Assembly: GCA_024277175.1 (NCBI GenBank)
Contig: JAJRVT010000201.1
Span: forward strand, 1-46,995
DNA length: 46,995 bases
Direction of reading: 5' to 3'
Source: Chloroflexota bacterium
Lineage (GTDB): Bacteria > Chloroflexota > Anaerolineae > Caldilineales > Caldilineaceae
The position numbers were made by a program, and so were the translations under genes. The number at the start of each line of letters is the position of its first letter. Positions within the stretch are counted from its first letter, which is position 1. Shown here piece by piece: positions 8,992 to 46,776 of the stretch. Below the pieces are notes generated by a model. It made no database searches and was not told the DNA's origin. It worked only from the letters and a program-made list of their open reading frames with translations.

Positions 8992-9420
8992 AACCGTTGC
9001 CAGTAAGTAGCCGAATCGTAGGTTTAGGCAGTATAATCGTAAACCAACGCTCGGTCAATAGTCGCACAGCGCATCTTTGTGGATCGATCCAACAACCTGT
9101 TCGAATTTGTCCTGTATCTTCTCAACAGTTTGGAATAGATACCTTGGAATGAAAGAAAACGAGTTTTGCGTGTCGCGGTTGCGAGGATCGCGCAGACTCA
9201 TAAAAGCTTGCCTTCGCTTCCAGATGATTGAGAAATCACTTCGCCATCGTATTACTCAGAGATAGGATTAGTCGTTAAATAATAAGCGTAACTTCCCGTG
9301 GTGATTTGCGTCATGATCTGCGCAGCGCAGCCGCGCCGCCCCTCATGGTTGCCGCCTGCCACAGGCGGCAATCGTTCATGACGAAGCCCCGACGTCAACT
9401 GTTGCAGGTGGAGGCAAACA

Positions 9421-19573: not shown

Positions 19574-19654
19574 GACGCAGAGACGCCAAGGCACAGAGCT
19601 CGCAGAGAAAAGCAACAACTCTTTGCGTCCCTCTGCATCTCTGCGCCCTGACGT
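19574..19654. repeat. GCAGAGA-unit palindromic element (family C, copy 1)
   Basis: gacgcagagacgccaaggcacagagctcgcagagaaaagc // tctttgcgtccctctgcatctctgcgccctgacg; between convergent cupin and hsp20 genes. Confidence 0.6.
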
Positions 19655-32784: not shown

Positions 32785-32878
32785 TTTGACGCAGAGTCGC
32801 GGAGACGCAAAGGGACGCAGAGAGAAATTCAAATCCCTCTTTGCGTTTCTCTGCGCCTCTGCGCCTTCGCGTCAAAGC
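32785..32878. repeat. GCAGAGA-unit palindromic element (family C, copy 2)
   Basis: tttgacgcagagtcgcggagacgcaaagggacgcagagagaaa // tttctctgcgcctctgcgccttcgcgtcaaa. Confidence 0.65.
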
Positions 32879-35019: not shown

Positions 35020-35114
35020 CGCAGAGGCGCAAAGTCGCAGAGGAACGCAGAGAAAGGCGCTTCTTCTAACATTGTAGTTCTCTGCGCCCCTTTGCGCCTC
35101 CGCGTCTCTGCGTC
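35015..35114. repeat. GCAGAGA-unit palindromic element (family C, copy 3)
   Basis: gtgacgcagaggcgcaaagtcgcagaggaacgcagagaaagg // gttctctgcgcccctttgcgcctccgcgtctctgcgtc; between convergent UDG and selenoprotein genes. Confidence 0.65.
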
Positions 35115-35128
35115 GAAGCATTTTCCCG

Positions 35129-35830
35129 CTACCCGAACGCGGCCCGGAACTCACTTACGGCCTTGGGACCGTTACGATCGAGGCCGGCGTAGAAGCCTTC
35201 CCGGTCCTGGGTGCGATAGTCCAGGCGCTCCACGTGGAAGGGGGCCAGGCGAGCGCCGCTGCGCCGTCGCCGCTTCACATCCAGAAAGTATTGAAGCGCG
35301 TTCTCCACGCTGGCGGCGTCGGTCCAGTCAGACTTGTAGACGGGGACGCCGGACTTGTTGAAGATCCACGTCATGTTGGGCATGGAACCGTAGGCCCGAT
35401 GGCAGGCGCCGTCCAGCGCGTCCACCAGGATGGACCGGGTGACGCCCAGTTTGTCGCGCAGGTCCCGGGCGTTGCTGAACTTCTGGGCCATGGAGGTGAG
35501 GCGGGGATAGATCTCGCCGGGATGGGCTTCGTGGGTGTAGAGGAAGACCGCGCCCACGCCCTGGTCACGGTAGCGGTCGGCGATTTCATTCATGGATGGC
35601 GCCGCCATCCCGCAGTATGGTCAGGTGAAGCTGCCGAACTCGACCACGGTGTAGGCGTGCCCGCGCAGGGTCTGGGCGAGGCTGGTTTCGCCGCCGTCCA
35701 GCCGCCAGAGGGGGAAGTCAGGGGTGCGCTCGCCCAGGGGCGGGCTTTCGTCGAAGCGCATCCAGGGCATGAACTTTTCCGGGACGAAGCTGTCGTAGTT
35801 GTAGGCGTTGAGCAGATCGGCGTCTGGCAT
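35129..35830 (-). CDS. iodothyronine-deiodinase-like thioredoxin-fold protein with in-frame TGA (candidate selenocysteine) at 35621-35623
   Basis: ORFs 35621..35830 and 35129..35608 are in the same frame, separated only by TGA+4 codons; joined protein reads ...YTVVEFGSFT-U-PYCG...VGAVFLYTHEAHPGE, matching deiodinase FGSxTUPxF...YIxEAH. Confidence 0.6.
35594..35610 (-). promoter_or_regulatory. small hairpin (7-bp stem, GGC loop) beginning 10 nt 3' of the in-frame UGA; candidate minimal bacterial SECIS
   Basis: minus-strand ggauggc-ggc-gccaucc; spacing from UGA similar to the ~11 nt reported for E. coli fdhF SECIS. Confidence 0.35.
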
Positions 35831-35981
35831 GGTTTCTCCTCAGCGTACAGGCTGGTGCAGAAAGTGCAAATAGATTTCTTGTACATAGTATGCGCTTTAG
35901 CGCGGTTGTTGGTTAGACTACGCTATCCTATGAACGGTAGATGACAATCATGCCTGAAAGAGCATTTTTACGCAACAGAGT

Positions 35982-38127: not shown

Positions 38128-38260
38128 AGGCGTGAAACGTAAGATCGCCGCGAACTAAGTGACGCCGCGCCCCTTACGAGTCATGCTTCACGTTTCACGT
38201 CTTCGCGCCTCCACGTCTTCGCGCCTCCACGTCTTTACGTTCCATGTTTCATCTCCAATT
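38128..38260. repeat. palindromic/tandem repeat element (family D: gtgaaggcgtgaaacgtaag // cttacg...cacgtttcac plus 2.5 direct copies of cacgtcttcgcgcctc)
   Basis: direct 16-mer repeats at ~38196-38240 and flanking inverted arms immediately after rarD stop. Confidence 0.55.
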
Positions 38261-46624: not shown

Positions 46625-46703
46625 GACGATTCCTCTTGACTATGTCGACGCTGTTCCATTTCGGAAAACGACCACCGGCCATTTCAACCGGTGGTCTGCG
46701 AGG

Positions 46704-46776
46704 CAGGCGAGGCAGGACTTGAACCCACAACCTGCGGTTTTGGAGACCGCTGCTCTACCAATTGAGCTACTCGCCT
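46704..46776 (-). tRNA. tRNA-Trp (anticodon CCA)
   Basis: reverse complement folds as cloverleaf: acceptor AGGCGAG/CTCGCCT, D-arm GCTC-AATTGGTA-GAGC, anticodon stem CGGTC/ACCG with loop CUCCAAA, T-arm GTGGG-TTCAAGT-CCTGC; CCA not encoded. Confidence 0.8.

Follow-up and report, generated by a model that had tools for sequence, protein, structure and literature searches.

The "deiodinase-like protein" family of bacterial selenoproteins was predicted by Zhang, Fomenko, and Gladyshev in 2005 from the Sargasso Sea metagenome (PMC1088965). It was reported with both selenocysteine (Sec) and cysteine (Cys) forms and with a bacterial selenocysteine insertion sequence (SECIS), and it appeared again in the analysis of the Global Ocean Sampling (GOS) data (PMC1088965, PMC2398784). 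In reviews of 2022 and 2026, its entry reads "PF00837, UxxC, predicted with high confidence," and the function is given as unknown and presumed to be redox (PMC9312934, PMC13188914). Here, a 46,995-nucleotide contig of a Chloroflexota bacterium of the family Caldilineaceae (GenBank accession number JAJRVT010000201.1), which in its full length is referred to as the window, carries a minus-strand frame at positions 35129 to 35830 that is interrupted by one TGA. The frame very probably forms a single gene, whose product would be a cytoplasmic selenoprotein of 233 residues from the deiodinase-like branch, with a SECIS-directed Sec at residue 70 (Sec70) and U-x-x-C redox chemistry. The evidence supports its placement as an unannotated member of a known, uncharacterized selenoprotein family, which makes it an annotation fix and not a discovery. 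A preliminary description of the window had proposed a probable unannotated selenoprotein at this locus, and the conserved TGA, the pairing of Sec with Cys among homologs, and a covarying hairpin support that proposal.

The frame contains two open reading frames (ORFs), 35621..35830 (69 amino acids) and 35129..35608 (159 amino acids), between which lie the TGA (35623..35621) and the codons P-Y-C-G, followed by a Met; the TGA is the sole interruption. Read through, the product is ...HAYTVVEFGSFT-[TGA]-PYCGMAAPSMNEIADRYRDQGVGAVFLYTHEAHPGE..., with the immediate context EFGSFT-[TGA]-PYCG, and the peptide spanning the Sec column is EFGSFT-U-PYCGMAAPSMNEIADR. The layout given in the preliminary description agrees with the sequence and its translation. 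Its expectation that ORF callers report fragments is likewise borne out, since the public protein collection holds 69- and 154-amino-acid products from the same 46,995-bp contig. The features of the locus are as follows.

35129..35830, minus strand: selenoprotein coding sequence of 233 codons, with ATG at 35830..35828, the Sec codon at position 70, and the stop codon TAG at 35131..35129 (predicted).
35836..35840, minus strand: Shine-Dalgarno-like AGGAG, 5 nt upstream of the ATG, read from the sequence and with a presumed function.
35621..35623, minus strand: in-frame UGA, read as Sec70 in the motif FGSFT-U-PYC; TGA at this column in 80 of 80 loci.
35612..35614, minus strand: TGC codon of Cys73, the second residue of U-x-x-C and the presumed resolving Cys.
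35611..35620, minus strand: 10-nt spacer from the UGA to the hairpin, CCAUACUGCG, of the same length and gap-free in 81 aligned sequences.
35594..35610, minus strand: SECIS-type hairpin with a 7-bp stem, GGAUGGC/GCCAUCC, and apical GGC, from RNAalifold, covariation, and codon constraint.
35513..35539, minus strand: codons 98 to 106, YTHEAHPGE, the deiodinase-type EAHP motif after strand beta3, from alignment to Dio3 and Dio2.

A search of approximately 5.8 billion proteins with the joined sequence, in which Sec was replaced with Cys, retrieved 1744 relatives. Among the best 120 of these matches, 113 cover only the last two-thirds of the protein, starting just after the TGA, and 7 cross the TGA, which indicates that the gene is split alike across databases. 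A scan of one genome per species revealed a relative in at least 277 species, and the best 80 of these were used for the locus analyses. The 80 loci belong mostly to Chloroflexota (Anaerolineae, Caldilineaceae, and Ardenticatenaceae), with a few from bins labelled Planctomycetota, Armatimonadota, Deinococcus, Latescibacterota, or Rubrobacter. Their tblastn alignments run from residue 1 (residues 3 to 10 in a minority) to residues 231 to 233, with 66% to 78% protein identity, and always span residue 70. The N-terminal piece is conserved in frame, and the coding conservation of the upstream 69 amino acids across the TGA, on which the preliminary description had partly hung its proposal, is therefore seen in the 80 best loci. 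The column itself is TGA in all 80 loci, which goes well beyond chance, within the context EFGS(F)T-U-(P/S)YC(G/A), and no TAA, TAG, or frameshift was found at this column in any of them. Together with the conservation of both flanks, this excludes a sequencing error, a pseudogene, or an ordinary stop codon.

An error in sequencing or assembly, or an inactivating mutation, would make the locus a pseudogene or a Cys gene with a miscalled codon. The contig is of the metagenome type, and a single base change from TGA to TGC or TGT restores Cys. However, the TGA column is shared by 80 independent species genomes, the protein identities above reflect strong purifying selection on both sides of it, and the hairpin described below is specific to the TGA forms. 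The misreading of TGC or TGT as TGA, which the preliminary description had itself raised, is thus ruled out, and the comparative data effectively refute this explanation as a whole, which retains practically no probability.

The residue at the Sec column alternates with Cys, a point that the preliminary description had proposed to check. Such Cys forms are rare among the homologs: in the close full-length proteins P0002 and P0008, TGT (Cys) takes the place of the Sec codon. Cys is the commonest residue there, within FGSxTCP, among the distant full-length relatives listed from a search of 1.84 billion cluster representatives. A second Cys, at position +3, is present in 81 of 81 aligned sequences, and the variants with Cys, Trp, Leu, or Phe at the Sec column retain it. 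The P-Y-C-G codons between the stop and the Met are invariant, this redox Cys included. These data bear on the possibility that the UGA is a real stop that yields two proteins, of 69 and approximately 159 amino acids, perhaps because translation terminates and then restarts at the Met that follows five codons later. An ATG does lie 5 codons past the TGA, and gene callers report just these products. However, a split at this point would separate beta1 from alpha1 of a thioredoxin fold, right at the active site, and full-length Cys homologs exist. In addition, the stop is never TAA or TAG in the 80 genomes and the frame is always kept, the four codons after the stop are invariant, and the hairpin covaries with the presence of the TGA. 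A genuine stop is therefore extremely unlikely, and the in-frame TGA is almost certainly a Sec codon, at which Sec is presumably inserted.

A perfect 7-bp hairpin, GGAUGGC-GGC-GCCAUCC, begins 10 nt after the UGA. The preliminary description had claimed such an element. Its presence, its 7 bp, and its 10-nt spacing stood, but the 66-nt stretch at 35560-35625, when folded alone, adopted a different minimum free energy structure with a nonsignificant z score of -1.78, and it is the interspecies comparison that argues for the hairpin. RNAalifold, applied to an ungapped alignment of 81 sequences, independently found exactly the 7-bp helix, with 99.3% of the base-pair cells being standard pairs. Compensatory double changes occur at 3 pairs in 11 cells (G-C to C-G, G-C to A-U, and A-U to C-G), and the remaining variation is G-U wobble. 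None of 500 shuffles attained the observed pairing or covariation, and the pairing fell to 29% to 60% when the partners were slid by 1 to 3 columns. Some of the compensatory changes alter the encoded amino acids: ATG to CTG (Met to Leu) co-occurs in the stem with TCC to GCC (Ser to Ala), and GGG to GGA co-occurs with TCC to TTC (Ser to Phe), which indicates that the RNA structure, and not the peptide, is preserved.

The codons of the stem are nearly frozen, with GCG GCG used wherever Ala is present and GGG used in 96% of the sequences, whereas other Ala, Gly, and Pro columns outside the hairpin vary freely. The mean codon entropy is 0.37 bits inside the hairpin versus 1.66 bits in 36 comparable columns of the gene. 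The stem folds with energies of -7.3 to -12.2 kcal/mol across all 81 sequences. Of these, 79 have GGC or GUC as the apical loop, in which G is invariant at the first position and either G or U occupies the second. The same 17 nt in the two Cys (TGT) homologs and in the Phe variant reach only -1.3, -2.3, and -4.7 kcal/mol, although they encode almost the same peptide. The stem is retained in the TGG and TTA variants, each of which is separated from TGA by a single mutation. The hairpin has thus decayed in the TGT and TTC forms and is kept in the TGA forms, which indicates that it tracks the UGA. No Rfam family matched the hairpin. In placement, in size, and in having a small apical loop with a G, it fits the features described for bacterial SECIS elements (PMC1088965). 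As read from the compared sequences, the conservation of the TGA, the Cys homologs, and the hairpin are the usual signatures of a predicted bacterial Sec codon with its SECIS.

SelB-dependent insertion of Sec is established for bacteria and underlies the translation model considered here. When a ribosome reaches UGA70, the hairpin 10 nt downstream would recruit SelB-GTP-Sec-tRNASec, and Sec would be incorporated where translation would otherwise end; if selenium or SelB were lacking, only the 69-residue fragment would be made. In the modeled protein, Sec70 would lie directly after strand beta1, ahead of helix alpha1, and would be paired with Cys73 as U-x-x-C, with the Cys at +3 pointing to a redox pair of this type. 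The Sec70 selenolate may attack an oxidized or electrophilic substrate, with peroxides, disulfides, and, less surely, carbon-halogen bonds as candidates; Cys73 may resolve the intermediate to a selenenylsulfide, and a thioredoxin- or glutaredoxin-type reductant may regenerate the enzyme. The conserved Thr69 and the H-E-A-H-P-G-E loop would act like their deiodinase counterparts. We infer the substrate, the reductant, and the redox chemistry of this scheme from the motif, the fold, and the family.

The protein is predicted to be a soluble member of the bacterial deiodinase-like branch, with a thioredoxin/peroxiredoxin fold. With U replaced by C, it matched Redoxin with 32.6 bits, which passes the cutoff, and AhpC-TSA with 32.1 bits (cutoff of 26), and the Cys homolog P0002 scored 24.8 bits with PF00837. 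Among 50 diverse full-length relatives, PF00837 was matched by 49, AhpC-TSA by 40, and Redoxin by 34, and the best E value for PF00837 was 4e-18. When the window protein was scored against NCBIfam, no curated model was found to cover the clade, which is probably why the gene is split in GenBank records. The best match was NF038285, "deiodinase family protein" (E = 5e-16, 59 bits versus a cutoff of 250), and ResA scored 22 bits versus a cutoff of 170. In a search of all PDB sequences with a profile of the clade, Dio3 was the first match (4tr3, E = 2e-4), and Dio2 was also matched; the aligned region takes in FGSxT(C/U)P, Y-x-x-EAHP, and the helix after them. In this alignment, FGSFT-U-P is aligned with FGSCTCP of Dio3, and YTHEAHP is aligned with YIEEAHPSD of Dio3 and YIDEAHPSD of Dio2. 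Among the 50 diverse relatives, E101 does not vary, and Y98, H103, P104, and G105 hardly do. The deiodinase-family assignment of the preliminary description thus holds at the family level, on the basis of the Dio3 and Dio2 profile matches and the wide occurrence of PF00837 in the relatives.

The AlphaFold (AF2) model of P0002, which is 68% identical to the window protein and has Cys at the column, has a pLDDT of 77.5 and shows a strand at residues 60 to 66, residue 70, and a helix at residues 71 to 90. This agrees with the earlier placement of the stop at the start of helix alpha1 after strand beta1. In a Foldseek search of the PDB with this model, the highest query-normalized TM-score was that of Dio3 (4tr3, 0.57), with 0.54 for Dio2 (9h48), and the top matches were ResA (2h1g/1su9, TMt of 0.82). 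The peroxiredoxin signature PxxxTxxC is absent, since positions -7 to 0 are V-E-F-G-S-F-T-U, with no Pro at -7 and Ser rather than Thr at -3. The N-terminal 60 residues (MPDADLLNAYNYDSFVPEKFMPWMRFDESPPLG...), as read from the sequence, contain no hydrophobic segment, signal peptide, or membrane anchor. As a separate observation near the EAHP motif, codon 110 (35501-35503, minus strand) encodes Arg in the window protein (YPRLTS) versus His (YPHLTS) in at least 90% of close homologs, and the position adjoining it aligns in the wider family with the His of PQHRS in Dio3.

Several observations weigh against the reading of the locus as a Sec-dependent, deiodinase-like redox enzyme. The window protein reaches 26.6 bits with T4_deiodinase (PF00837) versus a cutoff of 27.0, with Redoxin and AhpC-TSA scoring slightly higher, and the fold search does not separate deiodinases from ResA/TlpA-like and peroxiredoxin (Prx)-like proteins, with E values of approximately 1e-8 throughout. 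The +3 residue is Cys, in contrast to Phe in the animal deiodinases. Rare intact homologs, each a single-contig variant, carry TGG (Trp, L083), TTA (Leu, L084), or TTC (Phe, L087) at the Sec column with the +3 Cys and the remainder of the protein kept, and such residues are hard to square with a strictly catalytic role; these forms could be recent Sec-loss mutants, assembly errors, or proteins working via another residue. The neighbors of the gene in the window are of the housekeeping type (aminotransferases, a uracil-DNA glycosylase, an M20 peptidase, and an EamA transporter). Finally, tRNA-Sec, selA, selB, and selD were not found in the window or in the flanks of the 80 loci by ARAGORN (window and 60 loci), Rfam (window), and tblastn with E. 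coli SelA, SelB, and SelD (window and 80 flanks); the sole match was a weak GTPase match, and the result is uninformative on the genome beyond the window and flanks.

This last result, along with the one homolog with a genuine TGG, would suit readthrough of another kind, in which a near-cognate Trp or Cys tRNA, or a code altered at this locus, decodes the UGA, the hairpin acts as a generic stimulator, and no selenium is involved. However, TGA is the normal stop of 17 of the 38 other predicted genes in the window, and the column alternates with Cys, which is the signature of Sec/Cys pairs. The size and spacing of the hairpin and its small loop with G fit a bacterial SECIS (PMC1088965), the existing classification counts the family among the selenoproteins (PMC13188914), and the lineage uses selenocysteine, Chloroflexi being documented as Sec users with tRNA-Sec (PMC1794560 Table 2; PMC5389517). 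Such readthrough is therefore very unlikely, if marginally less so than a genuine stop, and insertion of Sec at the UGA remains the preferred reading.

The use of TGA as the stop of 17 of the 38 other predicted genes also indicates that the genetic code is standard and that the recoding is local. A reassigned code, with TGA read as Trp or Gly, was rejected on the same count, and the idea that Trp homologs represent TGA translated under code 4 was rejected for P0001, whose DNA contains a genuine TGG. A scan based on G+C content at third codon positions (GC3) revealed no other credible candidate for a TGA-interrupted coding frame in the window. A tRNA-Trp with a CCA anticodon (46702-46776, minus strand) was the one RNA gene detected in the window, and no other Rfam family was matched.

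The wider genomic neighborhood was compared in the flanks of the 80 loci (L001-L080). A DUF3179 gene (PF11376), absent from the window, lies within 3 kb of the deiodinase-like gene in 23 of the 80 loci. In 13 homologous loci (L003, L007 [TGA at 9338], L011, L032, L040, L042, L045 [two copies], L046, L048, L055, L058, L059, and L070), the DUF3179 gene usually lies immediately upstream, approximately 0.9 kb away on the same strand (in L003, it is downstream on the opposite strand), and has a conserved in-frame TGA in the context GIP(T/I)LVTW-U-P(L/I)CYTGLVHDRR, after which comes an invariant TACACCGGTCTCGTGCACGACCGG hairpin. In L002, L021, L025, L029, L037, L039, and L066, the gene has the Cys form. 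DUF3179 is a listed selenoprotein family (PMC13188914), and here it appears to be another selenoprotein, in many cases seemingly paired with the deiodinase-like gene as a unit of two genes. Other recurrent neighbors are a MerA-like protein with HMA and pyridine-nucleotide-disulfide oxidoreductase domains (14 loci), glutaredoxin-thioredoxin-reductase (Grx-TrxR) fusions (11 loci), an extracytoplasmic function (ECF) sigma factor with a small Cys/His-rich putative anti-sigma protein (10 to 11 loci), and a VTT/DedA membrane protein (11 loci). The DUF3179, MerA-like, Grx-TrxR, and ECF neighbors suggest a role in redox chemistry or detoxification rather than in dehalogenation.

The protein may alternatively be a true selenoprotein that acts as a reductive dehalogenase on natural organohalogens, such as iodo- or bromophenolics, rather than as a general selenol/thiol oxidoreductase. 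Its closest solved relatives by sequence are Dio3 and Dio2, with which it shares the FGSxT-U-P and YxxEAHP motifs; a further region is aligned to the Dio3 segment PQHRSLEDR...AARVL, and PF00837 is found in 49 of the 50 relatives. However, U-x-x-C is typical of disulfide-type oxidoreductases, with Phe taking the +3 position in animal deiodinases. The recurrent neighbors are of the redox or metal type (DUF3179, MerA-like proteins, and Grx-TrxR fusions), with no dehalogenation genes among them, and the authors who described the family expected a redox role and did not expect thyroid hormones in bacteria (PMC1088965). A dehalogenase is therefore improbable, and a U-x-x-C oxidoreductase is favored. 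A tentative and rather doubtful further reading is that, in Anaerolineae-type Chloroflexota, the deiodinase-like protein and the adjacent DUF3179 protein may form a two-selenoprotein module that reduces or detoxifies a specific electrophile (an organohalogen, metal, or metalloid). If true, two orphan selenoprotein families would gain a first clue to their function.

Immediately past the selenoprotein gene in the window, on its downstream side and between convergent genes, there is a long, near-perfect intergenic hairpin at 35020-35112 (126-nt fold of -64.5 kcal/mol, z = -5.7), built of the units CGCAGAGG / CGCAAAG. Similar hairpin units occur at 32790-32871, 19576-19645, and 38201-38231, of which at least 2 are intergenic, and 14 matches were found versus 2.8 expected. 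This hairpin looks like a member of a repetitive extragenic palindromic (REP)-like repeat family or a bidirectional terminator.

The practical value of the locus lies in annotation. The half of the protein with the active site is absent from nearly all records, as illustrated by the 113 of the 120 best proteins that start past the TGA, and a dedicated family model would repair hundreds of records. The genomic comparison confirms that the deiodinase-like family is widespread and, as predicted from its codons, almost exclusively Sec dependent in Chloroflexota. The locus also provides a clean, covariation-supported example of a minimal SECIS, in which a constraint on RNA structure overrides the protein sequence, with the Met-to-Leu and Ser-to-Ala changes occurring together and the base pair kept. 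No new kind of system is revealed.

The predicted SECIS resembles the E. coli fdhF-type element, whose features are described in part in PMC1088965, in being a hairpin within the coding sequence approximately 11 nt after the UGA, with a small apical loop and a conserved G followed by G or U. In contrast to that element, it has a shorter, perfect 7-bp stem with no bulged U, and no extended lower helix is predicted. The ResA/TlpA and Prx-like thiol:disulfide oxidoreductase selenoproteins (PF00578/PF08534, UxxC) share C/U-x-x-C at the same position and are the top Foldseek matches. However, unlike ResA/TlpA, the window protein has no signal peptide or membrane anchor, and unlike the Prx-like proteins, it lacks PxxxTxxC and has the EAHPGE and DG(A)CHRAYG motifs shared with deiodinase-like proteins. 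The DIF dechlorinase (PMC3205185) was considered as a precedent and set aside as a glutathione S-transferase (GST)-related enzyme that is not relevant here.

With the animal deiodinases Dio1 to Dio3 (4tr3/4tr4 for Dio3 and 9h48 for Dio2), the window protein has in common FGSxT-(U/C)-P after beta1, Y-x-x-E-A-H-P after beta3, a conserved helix region, a comparable fold, and Sec at the same structural position. It differs from them in having no N-terminal membrane anchor, in having Cys instead of Phe at +3, and in carrying a helical C-terminal extension of approximately 65 residues and a 30-residue N-terminal "YNY" segment, and the identity is only approximately 19% to 22%. Its SECIS is of the bacterial in-frame type, whereas that of Dio1 to Dio3 is a 3'-untranslated-region element, and thyroid hormones are not an expected substrate. 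The nearest described system is the bacterial deiodinase-like family, with which the clade shares the PF00837-related thioredoxin fold, the U-x-x-C motif, Sec and Cys forms, and a SECIS just past the UGA. Among the relatives listed for the wider family, the U/C-x-x-C form is found only in close relatives of the clade. From the shared Pfam family and motif only, we infer the identity of the clade with the published deiodinase-like representatives (MFL2763324.1, MBO99264.1, and AACY01143874). One difference lies in the source, since the family was described from marine plankton reads, whereas the present clade comes mainly from the genomes of Chloroflexota of the Anaerolineae.

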